A DNA stretch of 64,000 nt from Eledone cirrhosa. Lineage: Eukaryota. Below are positions 9,701-64,000 of this stretch, one piece after another. The translations under genes were made by a program, and so were the position numbers. The notes under the pieces were generated by a model. It saw only the letters and a program-made list of their open reading frames with translations. It searched no databases and was not told the origin of the DNA. The stretch spans positions 69,998,001-70,062,000 of the forward strand of contig OZ024740.1 of the NCBI GenBank assembly GCA_964016885.1. Reading direction: 5' to 3'. Position 1 is the stretch's first letter; each line of letters opens with the position of its first letter.

Positions 9701-10683
9701 TTAATCTTGTTTTCGAAGATGTTCTTCGATATATATATATATATCTTTATGTGTTTGTTGTTGTTCCATTTTAGCCTAGTTTTCATGTTCGTCATAAATG
9801 TGCACAATGAAAGACCAAACCGTTCGTAACGCAGTCCTTAAGTCTCTAAACTTTACTTACTTGGGGAGTTATGTTGAACAGGTGTCGTATGTAGAACGGA
9901 TTCGATTCTTGGCCGAGTACACAGTTCTCAGCCGCTTTTTTGTAAGGAATGGTCAAGCAGTGTATTTTATATTTTAGCTATTTGAAAAGCGGTTGATTTG
10001 TGGATAAGATTAAGGTAATTAAGGACATTACATTTTCTCTCAGTCAAATTGTCGTCAACTTTTTCTCTGCCACCTGAAGAAGACGAGGGTAGGGATTAAA
10101 ATTCCCCACACCATCCCTTCGTATATTTGTTGAGATGGATAAGAGAGGGGTTGGTGGCTTGTGTGAACTAGCGGGAATATGTAGGCCGAAGAGGATGCAT
10201 GCAGTTGGCAATTGATTTAATTTGCCCTTGGTGTTACTCCTTCTATCTAGAGAACTTAATGTCATTATATATATTTATTGTAGATTTTCACACCAGTTTT
10301 TCAGACCAACTATGTTTGACATTTGTCTCTGCAATGCCTCATCATGAAAGCTGCTTTTGGTAAAACAAAGAATGCAGATGGCTGTCAAAGTAAGGACATT
10401 TTCGTTCTTGTACAGTTTGCCTTGATCAGGGAAGACTTGTCTTCTTCTTCTTATTATTATTATTATTATTATTATTATTGAATGCCATGGTTGACAGAGG
10501 CTCGGCTCTGTAAGGTATAGTAATTTTTAACCGCTATAACAATTGTAAATTGTTTTAAACTTTAACCAAAAACACCCTCCTCCTCGTGAGAGGGGTCTTT
10601 CTGCCCTTTATTTGGCCCTTCGGGGTTAAATAACCGCTTATTGGGGTTTTGTGCCCAATATTCATTTTAAACAAAAAAAAAAC

Positions 10684-12617
10684 ATGGCTACAAAAAGGAA
10701 TTTACACAAGTCACTCCCACTCATTCCGTCTTCTTCTTCCTCAATCGTCACTACATCAGTGAGAAGATTGTCTCTCTCCCTCCCTTCTCTAAATGTGTCT
10801 CTCTCCCTCCCTTCTCTTTCGCAAGCGACGTCAGTAAAGAAAAAGAAAAATATAGTTTCTGATAGTTTCTTCGAGCACGTGCAAACCGAGGAACATTCCT
10901 CCACGACGACGACAACGCCGAATAATGTGTGCGGGAAATACGAAAACCCATTTCATTCGTCTGACGTCATGAATAATAGCAGTAGCAGCCGTAATAACAG
11001 CAGCAGCAGCAACAGTGATAAGGAAAACAATAGTAGCAGCCGCAACAGCATCAGCAGCAGCATAAACAATACCAGCAGCAGCAACAACAACAACAACCAC
11101 AGCAACAGCGGTGGCGGCAGTCGTAGTACCAGCAGCTACAACAAAAGTAACAGGAGCTCTGGCGACAACAATAACAACAACAAGAAAGAAAAACCAATCT
11201 CGTTTGCAGGTATCGCAAAGAACCTGGAAACCATCCTTATAACAAATGAGGAATTACAGGAAGCAAAGAAGATGGTGACGAAAACTGGACAACGAGCAAT
11301 CTGCAAGGCAGCCGAAACATTTTTCGAAACCCAACAGCACTGTACGGTCACGTACCGTACAGTAAGCACAAAATCCCGTAGTGTTGAAAGAGCCACAGAG
11401 GCTCAAATACAAAAAGCCTTAAGATCTGTGTGGCAGCGGAAAACGCATATCACCCGAGGCAAGAACTATGCCACCGTAGACGTGCTTTTGGCCACAGCCC
11501 AGGAAGCAAAGGCTCAATCCTTAGTGACCCTAAGGAGCCAAGAAATGGTGTCGGTGCCCTCCTACTGCGGGCAAAAATTGTGAGGGTCAAACTGACGAAC
11601 ATCTCCCCCGGGATAGCCCCTTCTTGGCTGGCCGCGTCTGTCCTCGTCGGAATCGAGGACAAAACAACTGTACTGCAAGTACAGAAAAAAGTAAGAGAAG
11701 ATTGGGTCGGCACCTCCATTGAGATATTAATACAAACCAACCAGGAGTGCATCGAAGCTATCCCGGATGTGATGGACTTCGATAATGACACTCAACTGCC
11801 CATAAGTGTTGAGGGCAAACGCCCGAAATGCTTTCGCTGTGGATCGAAGACTCACCTCGATGAGAAGACCCTGAGAAAGGAGAAAACCCCCCTCCTTCCG
11901 AAACCAGCTCCACTGCTACCAGCAACAGGACAAGCGGCAACCAGGAACGATAGGTCCGTGGCACCCATACCCACGCCACGGAAATCAAGAACAGCAGCAG
12001 CAGTGGAAGTATTAACAACAACAACAGTAATACCAACTGCAGCTGCAACAGAGACTCCACCGCAAACATCACCAACAACAACAAGTGAAAGAGTGGAGCT
12101 GGTACCCCTCCCCGACCTCACAGAATCAGATATGGAGTGTGAGGTGGGAGAGGGATGGCAAAAGGTTGCAAGAAGACACAAACGTAGAAGCAGCGCATCG
12201 TCGCCTTCGAAAAGGGAGGAAAGAAATGAAAAAAGGGTAAAGGCTACTGCAAATAGACTCACAGCAGCAACACCACCAATACCATCACCACCCACACTAG
12301 CACCACCATCACCACCGGCGACAACGCCACCGTCAACAACAACAACACATTCAACACCACCACCACAAGCACCAACATCGCAAACACAACAACAAAACAC
12401 ACACACCCAGCAACAACGACAAGAAAATAGCAGAACCACACCCCACCCCCAGAAAAACAAATGCACGGCAATAAATACACACAACAAGAAACTAATGACT
12501 TACATAATTGAACACACAGACATTTCACAGCACGACTACATAATACCAGCACCAATCAAAACACCAAACGAACATAAGACTGGTAAGAATAGCACAGAAA
12601 CAATACACAAACATTAA
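10684..12617 (+). pseudogene. LINE ORF1 (gag-like, partial zinc knuckle), frameshifted near 11575
   Basis: ORF 10651-11583 joins ORF 11430-12617. Shows an S/N-rich N-terminus, ISFAGIAK, VEGKRPKCFRCGSKTH (CX2CX4H, last Cys missing), GWQKVARR and a P/T-rich tail. Confidence 0.75.
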
Positions 12618-12838
12618 AACGAAATTCCCCAACGCAGTTGCTGATTTCAGAGACCTAGGAGGGACTCTCAACCGGAGAGTATATTCGGACATACTCATAG
12701 AAGAGCCGACGACCAGCCGAAGGGACGATCCAACGGTCACTTCACCAGACGATCAAGTGAAAAGGGATGGAGGAACCATCCTTCCTCTACGAAAAGTAAA
12801 GCAAGTGGTCTTTCCCATCATTTCCACTCCATTTCAAC

Positions 12839-15800
12839 ATGACCTCACTCAGAATAGCCAGCATAAATGCGCGTGGCTTGGGGTCGTCATGGAAGCAGGG
12901 TCACCTGCTCAACGACCTCACGTCACTAAACATAGATGTAGTGGCCATCAGCGAGACAATAATCTCCTAAGCAAGGGCCCTCGCACCGATCTTCGGCGGC
13001 TACGATGTGTATACATCTCCCAGCCGTCCTGGATTGGGGGGAGGAGTTGCTGTGCTTTTTCGGAGAGGTTTGGATCTCGCCATACGGGCCATCTTCCTGG
13101 ACCCAGAAGGTAAGTTGGTGGTGCTGGACGTGAGCAGCGGAGACGGGAAAGCTTTCAGGCTAGTGGTCGTCTATGCCCCGACAGGAGCAGGGCGGCCTGA
13201 TTTGTTCCGGCGTCTGGAGACCTTTCTTGGAACGTCCCGTTCTTTAGTGTTAGTGGGTGACTGTAACGGGATATTAGATGCACGCTGGGACTGTGTGGGA
13301 TTAGCAGATAGGGGAGGAGGGTGCAAGAGCCTCACCAACCTGCTCAGGCGTTTTGAACTGTCTGACAGGTACCGATTGGATTTCCCGAATGTACCAATGT
13401 GGACTTGGACAAATAAAATAGGGTCATTCAGATAATATCTAGATAGAGTATTTTGTAAGGCTTTAGCAATAGAGAAAAATAGTGCAGAGGGAGAACTAGT
13501 TAGAAAATTAGACGAGGCGCTTAGTAAAGGCATCGCGACCGACGTACTTGCGGCGAAATTGGCCCTTGACCAATTCTTCAATGCAAAGCACGAAGGCTGC
13601 CTTGTCAGAGCTAGGGTGCGTGCTCTCAGACACGAGGGGACGAAAGCCGTTCAATGGGCCCGAGTGGCGGAGGCGCGTCATGGCAACAAAGCCACGATCC
13701 GATCTTTGGTGGACCACGACGGGCGCATGCTATTCGATCCCGGGCAAATGTGTGAAGCTTTCCAGCGACACTTCGTCCAGTTGTTCGGGGGCAGCGGCGG
13801 GGCGGATCGAGGGGTGGACTTTATGGTCTACCTCGACGGACTGCCGTGGCTCTCAGTCACTGAGGCGGAGTGTTGCGAAAAGCCGATAACAGCCGCTGAA
13901 GTACGGGAAGCAATGACTGGCTGCACAAGGGGTAAATCGTCTGGTTTGGATGGTCTGCCCTATGAACTTTACGTACAGATGCCAGACTTGTTCGGAGGCC
14001 TCTTGGCCGTCATCTACTGCAACTGGCAACAGAACGAGAGAATTCCCAGCTCTCTGAGCCGAGGAGCGGTGGCCCTGCTGAGAAACGATCCGAATAAGGG
14101 GGATAACATAGATAATTTCAGGCCCATAACTCTGCTAAACACAGAGTTCAAGATTTTGGCCAAGATGCTAGTAAAGAGGTTGGCGCTTGTCGTTGGTGGT
14201 CTGGTGGGAGAGGCGTAGACGTGCGCCATTCCCGACAGATCCATCCACGACAACCTCCACCTCATGCGATACATCGTAGAGAGGGTAGCTAGGGAACCTG
14301 GCACGGGTAGGTCCTTGATCAATTTAGATCAGTCTAAAGCTTTCGATAGGGTCGACCATCGTTACCTAGCAGCAGTCCTGAGGGCGGCTGGCTTTGGGCC
14401 CGTCTTCAGAGGCTGGATCGTTGCCATGCACAGCGACATCTGCTCTGTGGTGAGAGTGAACGGTCACCTTTCGGAACCGTTCAACATCATGCGCTCAGTC
14501 CGCCAAGGATGTCCCCTCTCGACCCTCTTGTACGTATTGACTCTCGAGCCATTACTGAACAAACTGGAGACGTTGAGGGGGTCCCGCGCGAACTAGGATG
14601 CGGAAGATCCGTGTCAGCATATGCGGACGATATCAACGTAGTGGTGTTGAACGCCAAACACATCGAGGCGATCGACACTACACTAAGAGAATACGAAGCG
14701 GTGACAGGAGCAATGATCAACCAGGACAAGTCAGTGGACCTGCAGCTCGGCACCTGGAGAAGCATGTCCATGCCGTCCAACAGCGTCGTCGGGCGCTGGA
14801 CGGACGGACCGGTTAAATTGCCAGGGGTCTGGTTCGGCCCGGACCTCCAGACGGACAAAAACTGGGACGAGGTGACGAGCAGGGTGGCTTCTCTCACCCA
14901 GAAATGGGCGAAGAGGAAGCTATCCCTGAAAGGTCGAGCGGCGGTGGCTAACGCGTACATCGCGTCCGTCATCTACTACCGCCTGACCGTCGTACTTTGT
15001 CCTAAGCCCCGCCTGACTGCGCTGGAACGTTTGCTCTTTCGCTTTTTGTGGAAGGGACGCGCTCCGATGGTCAGGCGGTCTATCTTCTGTCAACACCCGC
15101 TACGTGGAGGGTTGGGAATGCCGTGGCTGATGATGCGCAGACACGCGCTCAGGCTACGACATCTCCACCTCTTCCTCGACGGTGATCAGGTGTGGTCGCC
15201 GTTTGCTAGACACGTATTTCCCTAGCTCGTTTCCTTGACGGACCTGCAGTCCTGGGTCAAGCGAAGACCGAGAGGGAGCGCCTGGAGACTGGAATGTCTT
15301 CAGGCGCTCACAGCCCTCGACCAATCGGGCAATGTGATCGGTGGAAACTCCACCTTGGCGTTCTATAGAGGATTAGTGGAGGGGAAGAGCGACGACGTAC
15401 TTGGGGAAACTCTAGGCGTCGACGAAAATCAACTAGCCAATCTCTTCGGAAGAACTTTCGGGCCGGGACCTATGGACAATTTCCAGAAATCTCTGGCCTG
15501 GCAGTGCTACCGAGGAGCCTTGCCAGTCGGGATAACCTCTACAGGCATGGAGGTGCCGTCAGCCGGGCATGTCCGAGATGCGCGCAGGGCGACGAAACCG
15601 TCCTGCACGCACTCGTCCAGTGTCCGAAAATTGCTGACTTTTGGGTTTATGTCGAACACCTGCTGTCGCGTGTAGGACGGATCCGGCTATCATCTGAGTC
15701 CATCGTGAGGATCGCCTCGCCCTCTTCCTTTAGCCGGGAAGGGCAGGCAGTTTTTATCTGTCTCGTGGCCATGGCGAAAGAGATAGTATGGTGGACACGT

Positions 15801-15986
15801 TTGAAAGGGCTGAAGACGAGCACTTACCTCTTCGGTGATGCCCTGATTGACTTTTTCAAATTTCATTTGAAAAGGAAAATCAGAGTAGAGAGGGAAGTGC
15901 TCTCTTCCCAGCATTTTGTTGAAAGATGGGTGAGAGAAGCAAGAATGGTCCGAGTAAATGGGCCTACTCTGAGTATATATCTGTAA
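12839..15986 (+). pseudogene. LINE ORF2: AP endonuclease, reverse transcriptase and C-terminal zinc finger; disrupted
   Basis: MTSLRIASINARGL, VAISET, GGVAVLF, VYAP, GDCN, YLDRV; GLDGLP, FRPITLLNTEFKILAK, LDQSKAFDRVDH, VRQGCPLS, AYADD; CPRC...ETVLHALVQC. Stops at 14216 and 15223, several frameshifts, and an internal deletion near 13460. Confidence 0.92.
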
Positions 15987-20838: not shown

Positions 20839-23925
<3,087 letters not shown>

Positions 23926-26220: not shown

Positions 26221-27193
26221 CTCAAGCATTATTTGAATTATTAGTGGTAGTATAAAAGGCATTATTGATGGATTTCTCTGCAAAACAGCTTAAATCTGAA
26301 GCGATTTTTTGGTAGGTGTGAGGGATTTGAATACGATTCCTCATAATAATTTCACGATAATTGCTTTTATTGCAGCTAAAGGCCGTGCCGTAATATTAAA
26401 CAGGGAGACAGATTTAGGATTAGAACTCAGAATGCAAGGAACTGAAATTCTTCAATACAGGATAATAAAATCTTAATTAAAAATGAAATAAAAAGTAGAT
26501 TTAAGGTATGGAAGTGAGAGCAAGAGACGAGTGCGAGAAATTAAAACGGGATGATAGTATGAGGGAGAGAGAGAAAAGTTCAGTTAGACTTGGAAAGATA
26601 AAACATGCTGACTCAACACAGGAGCAGTAGCGGAAAATGGGTGACAGCTATATAGAAAAGAAACATGGCGGTCTACATTTACATAGACGACATATATATA
26701 TATATGGCGACATATATATCAGTCACTAATTAGTTCATAAATAAACACTTCAGTTTATTAACTATAATACAAGTGGTGTATATAAAAACCATTAATCTGG
26801 ATACCTAAATATGGAATGTTACGCGATGGGGCTATGATACGTATGCACGTATGATACGCATGCACACAAAAATGCACGCGCACACACATACACACAGACA
26901 CACCCACACACACACGTATATATATAATATATATATATTTTGATATAATATATATATAATATATATATAATAATTAAGTTAAAGATGTACATCCATATAT
27001 GTATACTGAAATACTAGTATGTATATGAATACACACACGTATACATATGTAGATGTACCAAGTTTTTTCACTGGTCACTTTACTGTGAGTGGCCAGCTAT
27101 TCTGTATGTAAACACACAGACAAACCGGTTTTTAGAGTCATACTGGTTTTTGAGGAAACACCTTTCCTCTATTCTCCAGAAAGCCAGACAAGG

Positions 27194-27238
27194 AATATTG
27201 AACTAGTTTCGTTGTTGTTACAACTCATCAGCAATATT
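27194..27238 (-). ncRNA. Type I hammerhead ribozyme (467-bp unit)
   Basis: AAUAUUG CUGAUGA GUUGU-AACA-ACAAC GAAA CUAG UU CAAUAUU. Confidence 0.88.
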
Positions 27239-27660
27239 TACCTATCTTCCGGCCTCTCTAGAGAATCGTAAAAGCACATATCGTTATATGCTTTTTCTAT
27301 GAAAATTAGTAGTGGGCAGACTAATTTGCATAGAGTGTGAGTAAGTACCGGTTCAACGGAGACGATAAAAACAAATAACGAAACGAAATTAAATTTCGTT
27401 TCATTTGTAACTCACTTTTGTATGACTGACGCTTAAACAATTAAGTTAAAGATGTACATCCATATATGTATACTGAAATACTAGTATGTATATGAATACA
27501 CACACGTATACATATGTAGATGTACCAAGTTTTTTCACTGGTCACTTTACTGTGAGTGGCCAGCTATTCTGTATGTAAACACACAGACAAACCGGTTTTT
27601 AGAGTCATACTGGTTTTTGAGGAAACACCTTTCCTCTATTCTCCAGAAAGCCAGACAAGG

Positions 27661-27705
27661 AATATTGAACTAGTTTCGTTGTTGTTACAACTCATCAGCA
27701 ATATT
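27661..27705 (-). ncRNA. Type I hammerhead ribozyme (467-bp unit)
   Basis: Identical copy 467 bp away. Confidence 0.88.
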
Positions 27706-28226
27706 TACCTATCTTCCGGCCTCTCTAGAGAATCGTAAAAGCACATATCGTTATATGCTTTTTCTATGAAAATTAGTAGTGGGCAGACTAATTTGCATAG
27801 AGTGTGAGTAAGTACCGGTTCAACGGAGACGATAAAAACAAATAACGAAACGAAATTAAATTTCGTTTCATTTGTAACTCACTTTTGTATGACTGACGCT
27901 TAAACAATTAAGTTAAAGATGTACATCCATATATGTATACTGAAATACTAGTATGTATATGAATACACACACGTATACATATGTAGATGTACCAAGTTTT
28001 TTCACTGGTACATATATGGATGTACATCTTTAACTTAATTGTTTAAGCGTCAGTCATACAAAAGTGAGTTATTTAATTTCGTTTCGTTATTTGTTTTTAT
28101 CGTCTCCGTTGAACCGGTACTTACTCACACTCTATGCAAATTAGTCTGCCCACTACTAATTTTCATAGAAAAAGCATATAACGATATGTGCTTTTACGAT
28201 TCTCTAGAGAGGCCGGAAGATAGGTA

Positions 28227-28271
28227 AATATTGCTGATGAGTTGTAACAACAACGAAACTAGTTCAATATT
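28227..28271 (+). ncRNA. Type I hammerhead ribozyme (467-bp unit)
   Basis: AATATTG CTGATGA GTTGTAACAACAAC GAAA CTAG TT CAATATT read directly on the + strand. Confidence 0.88.
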
Positions 28272-28693
28272 CCTTGTCTGGCTTTCTGGAGAATAGAGGA
28301 AAGGTGTTTCCTCAAAAACCAGTATGACTCTAAAAACCGGTTTGTCTGTGTGTTTACATACAGAATAGCTGGCCACTCACAGTAAAGTGACCAGTGAAAA
28401 AACTTGGTACATCTACATATGTATACGTGTGTGTATTCATATACATACTAGTATTTCAGTATACATATATGGATGTACATCTTTAACTTAATTGTTTAAG
28501 CGTCAGTCATACAAAAGTGAGTTACAAATGAAACGAAATTTAATTTCGTTTCGTTATTTGTTTTTATCGTCTCCGTTGAACCGGTACTTACTCACACTCT
28601 ATGCAAATTAGTCTGCCCACTACTAATTTTCATAGAAAAAGCATATAACGATATGTGCTTTTACGATTCTCTAGAGAGGCCGGAAGATAGGTA

Positions 28694-28738
28694 AATATTG
28701 CTGATGAGTTGTAACAACAACGAAACTAGTTCAATATT
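28694..28738 (+). ncRNA. Type I hammerhead ribozyme (467-bp unit)
   Basis: Identical copy 467 bp downstream. Confidence 0.88.
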
Positions 28739-29145
28739 CCTTGTCTGGCTTTCTGGAGAATAGAGGAAAGGTGTTTCCTCAAAAACCAGTATGACTCTAA
28801 AAACCGGTTTGTCTGTGTGTTTACATACAGAATAGCTGGCCACTCACAGTAAAGTGACCAGTGAAAAAACTTGGTACATCTACATATGTATACGTGTGTG
28901 TATTCATATACATACTAGTATTTCAGTATACATATATGGATGTACATCTTTAACTTAATTGTTTAAGCGTCAGTCATACAAAAGTGAGTTACAAATGAAA
29001 CGAAATTTAATTTCGTTTCGTTATTTGTTTTTATCGTCTCCGTTGAGACTTTAATACATGAATACACTTACATCTAACTATACACATCAAACATATATAT
29101 ATATTTACTTATTTATATACATTTTCACATATATATACACATACT

Positions 29146-29314: not shown

Positions 29315-30592
<1,278 letters not shown>

Positions 30593-46374: not shown

Positions 46375-47290
46375 AAGCCAAACTCTACCCCTCTCTATAT
46401 CTACACTTATCTCTCCCAATCCCTCTCTGTATAGCAATCACCCCTAAACTCCAAACTATCCCCCTCTCTAAATCTACCATGCACCACTCTCTCGCATTCC
46501 CTCTCATCCTATCCTTCACTACCAAACTCTCCCCCTCTATATCTATCAATACCTATCTCTATAAATCATCTCACTCTATTCATTACCTCCAAACTCTCCC
46601 CCTCTCCATATCTACTACACGAACGTTCTTCCAATATTTCTCTTTATATCAATAATCATCAACCTCTCCCCTTCTCTATATATAGTATAAAACATACTCT
46701 CTCAAACCCCCTCATTATATGAATTACCACCAAACTATCCCCCTCTCTATATCTACCATACAACATTCTCTCTCATTCCCTCTCACTCTGTCTATCACTA
46801 CCAAATACCCACTCCCGGCTCTATATCTATCAAAACCAATCTCTATCAATACTCTCACTCTATTTATTACCACCAAACTCACCCCCTCTCTACAGCAACC
46901 ATACAATATATTCTCCCAATACTGCTTTCTATATCAGTTAACACCTAACTCTCACATTCTCTATATCTACTACATGGAACTCTCTTCCAATACCCCTCTC
47001 TATATCAATTGTCACCAAATTCTCCCCCTTCCTATATCTACTACACGGTACTCTCTTCCGTTCCCCCTCTCTATATATCAATTAGCACCAAACTCTCCCC
47101 TTCTCTGTATCTACTATACAGAACTCTCTTCTAATCCCCCTCTTTATATCTACTACACGGAAGTCTCTTCATATTCCTCTCTCTATATTAATTAACATCA
47201 ATCTATCCCCTCTCTATATACAACACACTCTCCCAACCTTCCTCTCCATATCAGTTACCACCAAAATCTCCCCCTCTTTATAACTAATTC
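46375..47290. repeat. Degenerate pyrimidine-rich minisatellite
   Basis: Recurrent ACCACCAAACTCTCCCCCTCTCTATATC motif, bracketed by direct TGTGTGTTTTGGTAGT copies at ~46343 and ~47340. Confidence 0.75.
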
Positions 47291-47776
47291 TTTATCTCCC
47301 GTCTGTCTCTACATAAATTGTAGTGCATATACGAATATATGTGTGTTTTGGTAGTTTGGGGGAAAACGTAACATTATTGGGGTGGGGGAGGCATGCCCCT
47401 CCCCGCACCACCACTTCCAGTACCCTTGTTATGTGAAGGTTTCATGTAAATATTAATTTTAGGTGGGTAACCACTAAAATAAATCGTCTTATCTAGATCA
47501 CTCTAATATGGGAATTCATTAAATAAATATAAAATATGTTTACATATATATATATAAATATAAATATATAAGCATGTATACGTACATACATATATGTATA
47601 CAGACGTACAGTAGTATGTATATATATATATACATACATGCACACATATATATGTACGTATGGATTCACCGAACATTTATTATAATGCTCGGTGTGTTTG
47701 TAAACAAACAACCCGAATTAAGCCGTACAGTGTCTAGCAACCATCGTTGCTCATTTGTTCAACACTGACAAAGGAA

Positions 47777-47817
47777 CGCTGTACTAGTTTCAAGCTTATT
47801 AGCTATCGTCAGCAACG
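47777..47817 (-). ncRNA. Type I hammerhead ribozyme, intact core
   Basis: CGUUG CUGACGA U-AGCU-AAUA-AGCU-U GAAA CUAG UA CAGCG. Confidence 0.85.
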
Positions 47818-48228
47818 CATACCTTCCAGCCAGATGGTTGAACGTCTGAAAGTATATACTTTCCTTATGCATATTAACGGCTGAGCAGCCTAATTTGCAT
47901 ATCGAGTGAGTTAATCGGCCGGGCGCACCGAAAACAATAAACGGAAAAAATGAAACGAACAAATATATATGTGTGCATGTATGTATATATATATATACAT
48001 ACTACTGTACGTCTGTATACATATATGTATGTACGTATACATGCTTATATTTAAGTAACAGCCATACTAAGAGTGAGAAATGAAATTTAGTTTCATTTTT
48101 TTCCGTTTATCGTTTTCGGTACCCCGGCCGATTAACTCACTCGATATGCAGATTAGGCTGCTCAGTCGTTAATATGCATAAGGAAAGTATATACTTTCAG
48201 ACGTTCAACCATCTGGCAGGAAGGTATG

Positions 48229-48269
48229 CGTTGCTGACGATAGCTAATGAGCTTGAAACTAGTACAGCG
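48229..48269 (+). ncRNA. Type I hammerhead ribozyme, intact core
   Basis: CGTTG CTGACGA TAGCTAATGAGCTT GAAA CTAG TA CAGCG. Confidence 0.85.
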
Positions 48270-48535
48270 TTCCTTTGTCATTGTTGAACAAATGAGCAAC
48301 GATGGTTGTTAGACACTGTACGGCTTAATTCGGGTTGTTTGTTTACAAACACACCGAGCATTATAATAAATGTTCGGTGAATCTATACGTACATATATAT
48401 ATGTGTGCATGTATGTATATATATATATACATACTACTGTACGTCTGTATACATATATGTATGTACGTATACATGCTTATATTTAAGTAACAGCCGTACT
48501 AAGAGTGAGAAATGAAATTTCGTTTCATTTTTTCC

Positions 48536-48569
<34 letters not shown>

Positions 48570-57380: not shown

Positions 57381-57699
57381 TGGATTTGCAGTATCGGCAA
57401 AGCATCGGACTTTGCAGCACAGATTTACGGCCGTCTACGTTCTGAGTTCAAATCCAGCCGAGGTTAACTTTGTCTTCCATCCTTACGGGGTCGTAAAATA
57501 AAGCACCAGTAACGTACTGGGGTCGATTTAATCGACTTTCCCTCCCCCCCAAATTATTGGCCTTGCGCCTATAGTAGAAACCATTATTATCATTATTATT
57601 AGGGTAGTGGATTGGCAGTATCGGTAGAGAGTCGGACGCCATGCTTTACGGTCTGAGTTCAAATCCCGCCGAGGTTAACTTTGCCTTTCATCCTTACGG
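57381..57699 (+). mobile_element. Two tandem tRNA-derived SINEs, the second cut off by the satellite
   Basis: B-boxes at ~57444 and ~57655; the second copy stops at CATCCTTACGG. Confidence 0.8.
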
Positions 57700-60600
57700 C
57701 ACTTACTTAAATGTAAGTATGTATGTATACGTACATACATATATGTACAAAGACGTACAGTAGTATATATATATATATACACACATATATATATGCACGT
57801 ATCGGTTTACCGAACATTTATTATAATGCTCGGTTTGTTTGTTTGTAAACAAACAAACAGCCCGAAATACGCCGTACAGTGTTTAGGCAACCACGTCACC
57901 TTTTTGTTCAACACTGACACAGGAACGATGTACTAGTTTCAAGCATATTAGCTATCGTCATCCTCGTATACCTTCCTGCCAGATGGTTGATCGTCTGACA
58001 GTATATACTTTCCTTATGCATATTAACAGCTGAGCAGCCTAATTTGCATATCGAGTGAGTTCAGACGGCCGGGCACACCGAAAACGATAAATAGAATAGA
58101 ATGAAACGAAATTTAATTTCTCACTCTTAGTACGGCACTTACTTAAATATAAGTATGTATGTATACGTAGATACATATATGTATACAGACGTACAATAGT
58201 ATATATATATATACACACATGCATACATATATATATGCACTCATCCTGTTTACGGAATATTGATTATAATGCTCGGTTACTTTGTTTGTAAACAAACAAA
58301 CAGCCCGAATTACCCCGTACAGTGTTTAGGCAACCAGGTCACCTTTTGGTTCAACACTGACACAGGAACGATGTACTAGTTTCAAGCTTATTAGCTATCG
58401 TCATCGTCGTATACCTTCCTGCCAGATGGTTGAACGTCTGATAGTATATACTTTCCTTATGCATATTAACAGCTGAGCAGCCTAATTTGCATATCGAGTG
58501 AGTTCAGATGGCCGGGCACACCGAAAACGATAAATTTAATAGAATGAAACGAAATTTAATTTCTCACTCTTAGTACGGCCCTTACTTAAATCTAAGTATG
58601 TATGTATACGTACATACATATATGTATACAGACGTACAGTCGTATATATATATACACACATGCACACATATATATATATGCACGTATCCCGTTTACGGAA
58701 CATTTATTATAATGCTCGGTTTGTTTGTTTGTAAACAAACAAACAGCCCGAATTACGCCGTACAGTGTTTAGGCAACCACGTCACCTTTTTGTTCAACAC
58801 TGTCACAGGAACGATGTAGTAGTTTCAAGCTTATTAGCTATCGTCATCATCGTATACCTTCCTGCCAGATGGTTGAACGTCTGAAAGTATATACTTTCCT
58901 TATGCATATTAACAGCTGAGCAGCCTAATTTGCATATCGAGTGAGTTCAGACGGCCGGGCACACCGAAAACGATAAATGGAAGGGAATGAAACGAAATTT
59001 CATTTCTCACTCTTAGTACGGCATTTACTTAAATGCAAGTATGTATGTATACGTACATACATATATGTATACAGACGTACAGTAATATGCATATATATAC
59101 ACACATGCACACATATATATATATGCACGTATCGGTTAAACGAACATTTATTATAATGCTCGGTTTGTTTGTTTGTAAACAAACAAACAGCCCGAATTAC
59201 GCCGTACAGTGTTTAGGCAACCACGTCACCTTTTTGTTCAACACTGACACAGGAACGATGTACTAGTTTCAAGCTTATTAGCTATCGTCATCATCGTATA
59301 CCTTCCTGCCAGATGGTTGAACGTCTGAAAGTATATAATTTCCTTATGCATATTAACAGCTGAGCAGCCAAATTTGCATATCGAGTGAGTTCAGACGGCC
59401 GGGCACAGCGAAAACGATAAATGGAAGAGAATGAAACGAAATTTAATTTCTCACTCTTAGTAAGGCACTTACTTAAATGCAAGTATGTATGTATACGTAC
59501 ATACGTATATGTATACAGACGTACAGTAGTATGCATATATATACACACATGCACACATGTATATATGCACGTATCGGTTAACCGAACATTTATTATAATG
59601 CTCGATTTGTTTGTTTGTAAACAAACAAACAGCCCGAATTACGCCGTACAGTGTTTAGGCAACCACGTCACCTTTTTGTTCAACGCGGACACAGGAACGA
59701 TGTACTAGTTTGAAGCTTATTAGCTATCGTCATCAACGTATACCTTGCAGCCAGATGGTTGAACGTCTGAAAGTATATACTTTCCTTATGCATATTAACA
59801 GCTGCGCAGCCTAATTTGCATATCGAATGAGTGCAGATGGCCGGGCACAACGAAAACGATAAATAGAATGGAATGAAACGAAATTTAATTTCTCACTCTT
59901 ATGGCGGCACTTTCTTAAATGTAAGTATGTATGTATACGTACATACATATATGTATACAGACGTACAGTAGTATGCATATATATACACACATTCACACAT
60001 ATATATATGCACGTATCGATTAACCGAACATTTATTATAATGCTCGATTTGTTTGTTTGTAAACAAACAAACAGCCCGAATTACGCCGTACAGTGTTTAG
60101 GCAACCACGTCACCTTTTTGTTCAACACTGACACAGGATCGAAGTACTAGTTTCAAGCTTATTAGCTATCGTCATCATCGCAAACCTTCCAGCCAGATGG
60201 TTGAACGTCTGGAAGTATATACTTTCCTTATGCATATTAACAGCTGAGCAGCCTAATTTGCATATCGGGTGAGTTCAGACGGCCGGGCACACCGAAAACG
60301 ATAAATGGAATAGAATGAAACGAAATTTAATTTCTCACTCTTAGTACGGCACTTACTTAAATGTAAGTATGTATGTATACGTACATACATATATGTACAA
60401 AGACGTACAGTAGTATATATATATATATACACACATATATATATGCACGTATCGGTTTACCGAACATTTATTATAATGCTCGGTTTGTTTGTTTGTAAAC
60501 AAACAAACAGCCCGAAATACGCCGTACAGTGTTTAGGCAACCACGTCACCTTTTTGTTCAACACTGACACAGGAACGATGTACTAGTTTCAAGCATATTA

Positions 60601-63600
60601 GCTATCGTCATCCTCGTATACCTTCCTGCCAGATGGTTGATCGTCTGACAGTATATACTTTCCTTATGCATATTAACAGCTGAGCAGCCTAATTTGCATA
60701 TCGAGTGAGTTCAGACGGCCGGGCACACCGAAAACGATGAATAGAATAGAATGAAACGAAATTTAATTTCTCACTCTTAGTACGGCACTTACTTAAATGT
60801 AAGTATGTATGTATACGTAGATACATATATGTATACAGACGTACAGTAGTATATATATATATACACACATGCATACATATATATATATGCACTCATCCTG
60901 TTTACGGAATATTGATTATAATGCTCGGTTACTTTGTTTGTAAACAAACAAACAGCCCGAATTACCCCGTACAGTGTTTAGGCAACCAGGTCACCTTTTG
61001 GTTCAACACTGACACAGGAACGATGTACTAGTTTCAAGCTTATTAGCTATCGTCATCGTCGTATACCTTCCTGCCAGATGGTTGAACGTCTGATAGTATA
61101 TACTTTCCTTATGCATATTAACAGCTGAGCAGCCTAATTTGCATATCGAGTGAGTTCAGATGGCCGGGCACACCGAAAACGATAAATTTAATAGAATGAA
61201 ACGAAATTTAATTTCTCACTCTTAGTACGGCCCTTACTTAAATCTAAGTATGTATGTATACGTACATACATATATGTATACAGACGTACAGTCGTATATA
61301 TATATACACACATGCACACATATATATATATGCACGTATCCCGTTTACGGAACATTTATTATAATGCTCGGTTTGTTTGTTTGTAAACAAACAAACAGCC
61401 CGAATTACGCCGTACAGTGTTTAGGCAACCACGTCACCTTTTTGTTCAACACTGTCACAGGAACGATGTAGTAGTTTCAAGCTTATTAGCTATCGTCATC
61501 ATCGTATACCTTCCTGCCAGATGGTTGAACGTCTGAAAGTATATACTTTCCTTATGCATATTAACAGCTGAGCAGCCTAATTTGCATATCGAGTGAGTTC
61601 AGACGGCCGGGCACACCGAAAACGATAAATGGAAGGGAATGAAACGAAATTTCATTTCTCACTCTTAGTACGGCATTTACTTAAATGCAAGTATGTATGT
61701 ATACGTACATACATATATGTATACAGACGTACAGTAATATGCATATATATACACACATGCACACATATATATATATGCACGTATCGGTTAAACGAACATT
61801 TATTATAATGCTCGGTTTGTTTGTTTGTAAACAAACAAACAGCCCGAATTACGCCGTACAGTGTTTAGGCAACCACGTCACCTTTTTGTTCAACACTGAC
61901 ACAGGAACGATGTACTAGTTTCAAGCTTATTAGCTATCGTCATCATCGTATACCTTCCTGCCAGATGGTTGAACGTCTGAAAGTATATAATTTCCTTATG
62001 CATATTAACAGCTGAGCAGCCAAATTTGCATATCGAGTGAGTTCAGACGGCCGGGCACAGCGAAAACGATAAATGGAAGAGAATGAAACGAAATTTAATT
62101 TCTCACTCTTAGTAAGGCACTTACTTAAATGCAAGTATGTATGTATACGTACATACGTATATGTATACAGACGTACAGTAGTATGCATATATATACACAC
62201 ATGCACACATGTATATATGCACGTATCGGTTAACCGAACATTTATTATAATGCTCGGTTTGTTTGTTTGTAAACAAACAAACAGCCCGAATTACGCCGTA
62301 CAGTGTTTAGGCAACCACGTCACCTTTTTGTTCAACGCGGACACAGGAACGATGTACTAGTTTGAAGCTTATTAGCTATCGTCATCAACGTATACCTTGC
62401 AGCCAGATGGTTGAACGTCTGAAAGTATATACTTTCCTTATGCATATTAACAGCTGCGCAGCCTAATTTGCATATCGAATGAGTGCAGATGGCCGGGCAC
62501 AACGAAAACGATAAATAGAATGGAATGAAACGAAATTTAATTTCTCACTCTTATGGCGGCACTTTCTTAAATGTAAGTATGTATGTATACGTACATACAT
62601 ATATGTATACAGACGTACAGTAGTATGCATATATATACACACATTCACACATATATATATGCACGTATCGATTAACCGAACATTTATTATAATGCTCGAT
62701 TTGTTTGTTTGTAAACAAACAAACAGCCCGAATTACGCCGTACAGTGTTTAGGCAACCACGTCACCTTTTTGTTCAACACTGACACAGGATCGAAGTACT
62801 AGTTTCAAGCTTATTAGCTATCGTCATCATCGCAAACCTTCCAGCCAGATGGTTGAACGTCTGGAAGTATATACTTTCCTTATGCATATTAACAGCTGAG
62901 CAGCCTAATTTGCATATCGGGTGAGTTCAGACGGCCGGGCACACCGAAAACGATAAATGGAATAGAATGAAACGAAATTTAATTTCTCACTCTTAGTACG
63001 GCACTTACTTAAATGTAAGTATGTATGTATACGTACATACATATATGTACAAAGACGTACAGTAGTATATATATATATATACACACATATATATATGCAC
63101 GTATCGGTTTACCGAACATTTATTATAATGCTCGGTTTGTTTGTTTGTAAACAAACAAACAGCCCGAAATACGCCGTACAGTGTTTAGGCAACCACGTCA
63201 CCTTTTTGTTCAACACTGACACAGGAACGATGTACTAGTTTCAAGCATATTAGCTATCGTCATCCTCGTATACCTTCCTGCCAGATGGTTGATCGTCTGA
63301 CAGTATATACTTTCCTTATGCATATTAACAGCTGAGCAGCCTAATTTGCATATCGAGTGAGTTCAGACGGCCGGGCACACCGAAAACGATGAATAGAATA
63401 GAATGAAACGAAATTTAATTTCTCACTCTTAGTACGGCACTTACTTAAATGTAAGTATGTATGTATACGTAGATACATATATGTATACAGACGTACAGTA
63501 GTATATATATATATACACACATGCATACATATATATATATGCACTCATCCTGTTTACGGAATATTGATTATAATGCTCGGTTACTTTGTTTGTAAACAAA

Positions 63601-64000
63601 CAAACAGCCCGAATTACCCCGTACAGTGTTTAGGCAACCAGGTCACCTTTTGGTTCAACACTGACACAGGAACGATGTACTAGTTTCAAGCTTATTAGCT
63701 ATCGTCATCGTCGTATACCTTCCTGCCAGATGGTTGAACGTCTGATAGTATATACTTTCCTTATGCATATTAACAGCTGAGCAGCCTAATTTGCATATCG
63801 AGTGAGTTCAGATGGCCGGGCACACCGAAAACGATAAATTTAATAGAATGAAACGAAATTTAATTTCTCACTCTTAGTACGGCCCTTACTTAAATCTAAG
63901 TATGTATGTATACGTACATACATATATGTATACAGACGTACAGTAATATGCATATATATACACACATGCACACATATATATATATGCACGTATCGGTTAA
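57695..64000. repeat. ~442-bp satellite with 6-monomer (2650-2652 bp) higher-order repeat; mutated hammerhead in each monomer (minus strand)
   Basis: Monomers start at ~57695, 58131, 58574, 59017, 59461, 59901, 60345... Identical ORFs recur at +2650/2652. The array runs off the window end. Confidence 0.95.

Follow-up and report, generated by a model that had tools for sequence, protein, structure and literature searches.

Does a hammerhead ribozyme have to stop cutting before the mobile repeat that carries it can grow into a satellite-like array? The question is raised by a 64,000-nucleotide stretch of the Eledone cirrhosa genome (assembly GCA_964016885.1, contig OZ024740.1; G000:C1:69,998,001-70,062,000 of the 3.0-Gb assembly in our coordinates), here called the window, in which a tandem array of 442-bp hammerhead-bearing units begins at 57695. 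An initial annotation held that every hammerhead in the array carries the same core mutation, C3A, and that one catalytically dead retrozyme copy had seeded its expansion. We conclude that the locus is probably a local tandem expansion of a very abundant hammerhead repeat, likely a non-long-terminal-repeat (non-LTR) retrozyme, and that neutral concerted evolution, rather than any benefit of lost cleavage, probably accounts for the spread of C3A. On our best reading, C3A is a hitchhiker in an ordinary retrozyme array that expanded at the DNA level.

Units, blocks and extent of the array

Tandem Repeats Finder (TRF) places 14.3 copies of the 442-bp unit at 57695-64000 of the window. With 30 kb of neighbouring sequence added, the array, on the minus strand, extends a further 15 kb or so to about extended position 79,140 (extended positions carry the window numbering past 64,000 into the adjoining sequence), giving a total of about 21 kb (G000:C1 ~70,055,695-70,077,140). 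There are 48 direct units, whose hammerheads lie on the minus strand, followed by a single inverted partial unit that starts at 78746 and ends in a TA run, a direct-plus-inverted layout that matches the one found in short relatives inserted in (TA)n. Units are 432-445 bp long with 37% GC, and 57695-64000 holds no open reading frame (ORF) of 120 amino acids or more. At the left junction (57600-57700, plus strand), inspection of the sequence shows another short dispersed repeat, cut off, joining the array through the common letters TACGG; neither a (TA)n flank nor a target-site duplication is seen there, in contrast to most short relatives, and the missing TA flank suggests a later deletion at this end.

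The 48 direct units fall into 17 monomer types, ordered ABCDEF ABCDEF ABGHIJKEF ABGHIJKEF ABCDEF ABGHIJ LMNOPQ, that is, in 6-unit and 9-unit higher-order blocks arranged 6, 6, 9, 9, 6 and a partial 9. Block alignment puts the first six-monomer copy (types A-F) at 57695-60344 and the second at 60345-62996, with 4 substitutions between them in 2,650 aligned bases. Throughout the array, block copies are separated by 0-4 substitutions over 2.6-4.0 kb and copies of the same type by 0-2, while different types stand 9-30 substitutions apart per 330 bases, mostly 3-8%, the distance of type Q being inflated because the segment used for it runs across the inversion junction. Within the window, the 14 motifs repeat six types of this 2.65-kb higher-order repeat and are therefore not independent. 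The expansion at the DNA level proposed earlier is borne out by these higher-order repeats; the array shows the concerted evolution and block structure of a satellite at a length of kilobases in the assembly, not the hundreds of kilobases or more of a satellite in the strict sense.

Near-identity of the blocks, which differ so little over such lengths, could also arise if they were partly an assembly artefact and the true array were shorter, and no read or contig placed here spans a unit. We think this highly improbable: unequal exchange would produce just such a block order, with recombinant types and with blocks that differ slightly but consistently, similar blocks occur in other arrays, and both the 17 monomer types and the mixture of A3 and C3 are independent of block order.

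Each unit carries one type I hammerhead. The first, read at 57926-57966 on the minus strand, comprises stem I, AUGACGA (57961 being position 3), a stem II that rests on a U.U base, GAAA, a palindromic ACUAGU helix III and a GUA site, with the cut predicted between 57931 and 57930. In an intact unit, stem I has 5 bp and is followed by CUGACGA, stem II has 4 bp above the U.U base, and GAAA, ACUAGU and GUA complete the motif, and the family as a whole has the core CUGANGA...GAAA...UH with three helices in type I order, so that the description of a retrozyme-like hammerhead unit, with a type I core in a non-coding tandem repeat, stands. In a gap-free alignment both sides change in 7/12 pairs, and 92.7% of cells are paired as against 23-43% in slid controls, figures that are not a probability, as they come from 8 hand-picked, related variants of three families. 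Among 150 of 365 Rfam matches listed, none is a hammerhead for the 442-bp unit; matches of TA repeats to microRNA models dominate, all below gathering, and HH9 is matched only by a related 467-bp family (37.7 of 52 bits gathering score). A shifted core register, AUGAUGA in units with the CGAUG stem, leaves neither stem II nor the GAAA spacing and was ruled out by inspection.

Core state and the spread of C3A

Within the window, position 3 is indeed A in 14/14 minus-strand motifs (AUGACGA, at 57961, 58404 and so on to 63708), as first noted. Over the whole array the claim for every hammerhead fails: A is found in 41/49 motifs, representing 13/17 types, and C in 8/49. The C3 types are H, which also carries G12A, J, which also carries G5A, and P and Q, the two units at the right edge (extended positions 78235 and 78677), which have an unaltered core. 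G8 is uncompensated, as stated, with A3 opposite it in 41 units, and 47/49 units have at least one core change. The conservation of the remainder had been overstated: stem II is unchanged in 11/14 motifs of the window and GAAA-CUAG is intact in 10/14, while the stem I said to be usually kept, CGAUG/CAUCG, is perfect in 4/14 and has one mismatch in the other 10. An unpaired 3-8 position greatly lowers hammerhead activity, and since the 3-8 pair is lost, A3 units are predicted to have little catalytic activity of their own. Our literature search, which covered few subscription papers, found no measurement of C3A activity. Positions 3 and 8 form a hammerhead base pair, of which U3-A8 is a natural variant (PMC4209133, PMC3884650).

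Little activity of their own need not make these units uncuttable. Hammerheads with a weak palindromic helix III are described as cutting as dimers (PMC4209133), and the cleavage-site side is intact in 32/48 units; were the array transcribed, its units could in principle still be cut by an intact partner. The idea that loss of cleavage would allow long satellite transcripts is weakened by this combination of a dimer-type hammerhead and largely intact cleavage-site sides. When two A3 motifs are co-folded, the lowest-energy form is the double-hammerhead pairing; pairings that involve a C3 motif have another fold of similar energy. A circular monomer is predicted to be highly self-paired (z of about -5 relative to 40 dinucleotide shuffles, both for an array unit and for a dispersed unit, one of each having been folded), partly owing to its TA-rich and palindromic parts. 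About 85 nt upstream of the hammerhead, sequence comparison finds an octamer, ATGCAAAT (58042-58049 in the first unit, minus strand), present in 47/48 array units and common to the 467-bp family. By analogy with small nuclear RNA-type promoters, it is a putative promoter element. The same literature search found nothing linking the octamer to such repeats.

Where did C3A come from? Genome-wide, the exact 29-letter motif occurs 10,718 times with C3, 131 times with A3, 87 times with G3 and 245 times with U3, and never in the reversed controls. The mutation is concentrated in this array, which holds 21 of the 131 exact A3 motifs; the 110 elsewhere amount to about 1%, between the counts for G3 and U3, and appear to be ordinary mutation load at background level. 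Places are available for 100 of the 131 A3 motifs, among the matches listed, and later contigs may hold a small A3 cluster. Two of two off-array exact A3 matches inspected are truncation junctions. In contigs from three runs of one study (run type not stated, share 0.37-0.40), the plus-strand base at 57961 is G, that is C3, in more than 99% of summed depth; none of these contigs spans a unit, and they read the family-wide state and not the C3A array or its junction.

Nor is the stem I of the array private to it, for 1,723 exact C3 copies carry CGAUG/CAUCG. The closest dispersed loci (12 fetched, two of them overlapping, hence 11 distinct) belong to this subfamily, are 94-96% identical and are all C3; each is a short tandem with 2-4 units, most of them adjoin (TA)n, and an inverted arm is common. 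A dispersed A3 subfamily was considered and ruled out, with 12 CGAUG-A3 motifs outside the array against the 1,723 with C3, counted with slightly different pattern lengths.

Compared with 56 dispersed CGAUG segments over 275 bases, the array has three majority changes, -104 A>T (100%), -67 C>T (91%) and C3A (85%), two of which lie outside the ribozyme. Core sites carry no excess of variation among the 17 types (5 variant alleles at 11 core sites, 157 at 319 others; Fisher p = 1.0), and variants shared by non-adjacent units form mosaic tracts. Three of the four C3 types (J, P and Q) combine C3 with the ancestral -67C. A tree unites all array units except Q (94/90) and leaves J, P and H out of a weakly supported A3 group (84/76). 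The simplest order is a C3 founder, partial sweeps and a recent block duplication of an A3-rich stretch. Mechanistically, an RNA copy would have been reverse-transcribed and inserted by the enzymes of a Penelope-like element; unequal exchange and gene conversion would then have extended the array and shuffled its variants, C3A spreading together with -67 C>T and -104 A>T, and recent block duplications would by chance have copied the A3-rich stretch, leaving the C3 edge units single.

That one dead copy seeded the array is disfavoured, with C3 in two right-edge units and two inner types. In its fuller form, the inserted copy would already have had A3, -67T and -104T, and the C3 units would be later conversions from the thousands of intact copies elsewhere, the dead state still being incidental to growth. 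In its favour, A3 and -67T are both present in the inverted arm, a part usually formed at insertion; the types approach a star shape, with 120 singleton and 42 shared alleles, as if many units arose together; and a dimer-acting hammerhead would let an intact neighbour release an A3 unit for copying (compare PMC4209133). A dead founder, however, requires about four separate conversions back to the family state, and C3 and -67C occur together at the array edge, in P and Q, where founder states are expected to persist. The arm itself has the ancestral -104A; D, G and C are the types nearest to it, and it has later variants in common with D and G, a state that would fit conversion from the array, possibly also a dead founder. 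Finally, no A3 lineage is seen: five of the 12 dispersed CGAUG-A3 copies, when fetched, proved to be single A3 units, four with -67C and the fifth unreadable there. We therefore regard a founder that was dead on arrival as unlikely.

Sister arrays and the role of cleavage

The link between the dead copy and satellite growth can be judged from other long arrays of the family, and it finds no support there. Six were collected: C2:382.98 Mb (136 units, 134 with C3 and 115 with intact cores), G000:C28:36.03 Mb (at least 62 units; 55 and 16), C28:29.34 Mb (37 units; 29 and 28), C5:84.42 Mb (at least 23 units; 21 and 19), C28:36.02 Mb (21 units; 18 and 13) and C8:34.01 Mb (21 units; 20 and 9). Pooled, they have C3 in 277/300 units, A3 in 4/300 and an intact core in 200/300. 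The initial annotation had itself named long arrays that retain CUGACGA as a result that would refute it, and these arrays supply that result. The six are not a random sample, three having been reached through position-3 variant matches (two G3, one A3), one as the neighbour of such an array and two by similarity, and because most were found via, or beside, position-3 variants, the sampling is biased against C3. The 136-unit array, the longest, has near-identical block duplications of its own, in which 24/27 duplicated types have intact cores. Long arrays and higher-order repeats thus need no dead ribozyme, as the six mostly keep C3 and the duplicated types of the longest are mostly intact. 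On these data, ribozyme activity does not have to be lost for an array to grow.

Within the array at G000:C28:36,030,000-36,056,000, G8A is found in 45/62 units, and seven C3U units all lie on the A8 background. These units have the known compensated pair, U3-A8; they are 3-10 substitutions from the first and may have a single origin, and their occurrence on A8 may be due to chance.

Could loss of cleavage nevertheless be favoured in long arrays at some loci? An intact, transcribed array might flood the cell with mobile circles or cut a host read-through transcript, so that dead units would be retained and amplified. The re-amplified part of our array has 0/42 intact cores, reached by three changes (C3A, G12A and G5A), an independent G8A sweep has occurred at G000:C28:36.03 Mb, and the octamer is retained in nearly every unit. 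Five of the six other arrays, however, lack a majority core change and four of the six have mostly intact cores; core sites, as seen above, are no more variable than the rest; and at 2.5% departure per site a second core change in 2/4 C3 types is expected about one time in five. The C3A array has to be set aside from any count of sweeps because it was picked for its core mutation, which leaves one core sweep in six arrays, at a CpG, and this does not show selection. We consider such local advantage improbable. A bolder version has long retrozyme arrays repeatedly taken over by cleavage-dead alleles (C3A here; G8A on C28, followed by U3-A8 in 7 units), dead units being favoured once transcribed and kept mobile through dimer-mode cutting by intact partners. 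If true, cheater ribozymes would drive the transition from retroelement to satellite, a prospect to which we give a slim chance.

Neutral hitchhiking remains our preferred reading, and several points weigh against it. Two of the seven long arrays are mostly core-mutant, C3A here and G8A at G000:C28:36.03 Mb. Ours is the extreme case, the most decayed of the seven, with 2/49 cores intact and none in its block-duplicated part. Tree support for the A3 grouping is weak, and the state of the inverted arm means that a simple order of C3 founder and then sweep needs a conversion event. Furthermore, no autonomous partner was identified; the search took in one young family encoding a 785-amino-acid protein (30 short loci and two 9-kb loci), which has no homology to the 442-bp unit, and other families were outside it.

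The locus is a tidy case of a known process, in which the ribozyme of a mobile repeat decays as the repeat builds up a local array with higher-order structure. Only the higher-order structure and the range of decay among sister arrays are mildly fresh. Together, at least seven arrays of 21-136 units from one family, with 4% to 85% intact cores, form a natural series that allows testing of the role of ribozyme activity in array growth and of the cutting of dead units by intact partners.

Known systems and neighbouring repeats

Hammerhead-bearing satellite DNA has been known since work on newts in 1987 (PMC6155905). The family described here resembles metazoan non-LTR retrozymes as they appear in the accessible text of two reports (Cervera and de la Pena 2020, PMC7229834; Li et al., bioRxiv 10.64898/2026.07.22.740005): a non-coding tandem unit of 150-450 bp with GC below 50% and one type I hammerhead, in thousands of copies that range from monomers to long multimers. 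Many monomers, dimers and multimers are likewise dispersed in Eledone, in arrays of 1-136 units. Coral has retrozyme arrays of 62 units (PMC7229834); arrays of up to 180-300 units are described elsewhere, and unequal crossover has been proposed as the route of their local amplification (bioRxiv 10.64898/2026.07.22.740005). The U.U mismatch at the base of helix II is shared with the active axolotl retrozyme hammerhead HHR_Amex2, which cleaves (PMC7229834). Unlike these retrozymes, our array is mostly core-mutant and has 6- and 9-unit higher-order repeats that the available portions of the two reports do not describe.

The short helix I and the dimer-suited palindromic helix III recall the pseudo-LTRs (pLTRs) of Penelope-like elements, with their minimal or palindromic-helix-III hammerheads, and the tandem and inverted, 5'-truncated layout and insertion in (TA)n recall the elements themselves (PMC4209133; PMC8557442), whose complex tandem and inverted insertions show a microsatellite bias (PMC8557442). 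The array unit has no ORF, and in the one young family checked no pLTR of an autonomous element that matches the unit was found. Newt satellite 2, Schistosoma Sm-alpha and Dolichopoda pDo500 are transcribed satellites of genome scale (PMC6155905; PMC2808323), whereas ours is one local 21-kb array; in pDo500, which comes from a cricket, conservation of the hammerhead region does not exceed that of the other parts (PMC2808323).

The window also holds dispersed relatives, which read CUGACGA at 23276, 47812 and 48234, as initially reported. Their homology to the array monomer is confirmed at 84-87% identity, with the qualification that they belong to another subfamily (stem I CGUUG/CAGCG). By alignment and motif reading, 47561-48541 is a back-to-back insertion flanked by TA runs with intact cores at 47812 (minus strand) and 48234 (plus strand), and 23022-23334 (plus strand) is a truncated copy within a 2-kb (TA)n run that is core-mutant through U16.1>A. 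The same (TA)n run breaks up a reverse-transcriptase-like fragment at 21361-21960. A test for rolling-circle origin, based on private variants shared within short insertions, did not discriminate, with medians of 0.039 within and 0.043 between. Elsewhere, at G000:C1:19,315,055-19,316,767, a five-unit insertion alternates between two types of unit, 422 and 420 bp long, the pattern expected if a dimeric circle was copied by a rolling-circle mechanism or a dimer was duplicated.

The related 467-bp family is represented at 26969-29046 by a very young insertion in which 2.2 units face 2.3 units, the arms being 100% complementary over 893 nt; its four hammerheads are intact (Rfam HH9, 37.7 bits), and it shares the octamer of the array. 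A third family, with a 310-bp unit, lies at G000:C28:29,326,600-29,328,000; the stems of its hammerhead (UAAUC/GGUUA, UUCU/AGAA and ACGCGU) differ in sequence from those of the array family but agree with them in length and in the U.U base of helix II.

At 29315-30367 (minus strand) lies the 3' part of the young 785-amino-acid element, of which there are at least 150 copies with 98-99% protein identity. Full copies have the 785-amino-acid ORF, direct repeats of about 398 bp and an inverted truncated copy, and by this layout and a GIY-YIG-like motif the element is probably Penelope-like. Its repeat contains a CUGAUGA...GAAA motif with an unusual stem I. The protein has no Pfam or PDB match. Beyond these, the window contains a frameshifted element resembling a long interspersed nuclear element at 10630-15986 (plus strand), with weak RVT_1 matches (E 0.03-0.07), and, at 46451-47188, about 10 degenerate tandem copies of a pyrimidine-rich 71-bp repeat.

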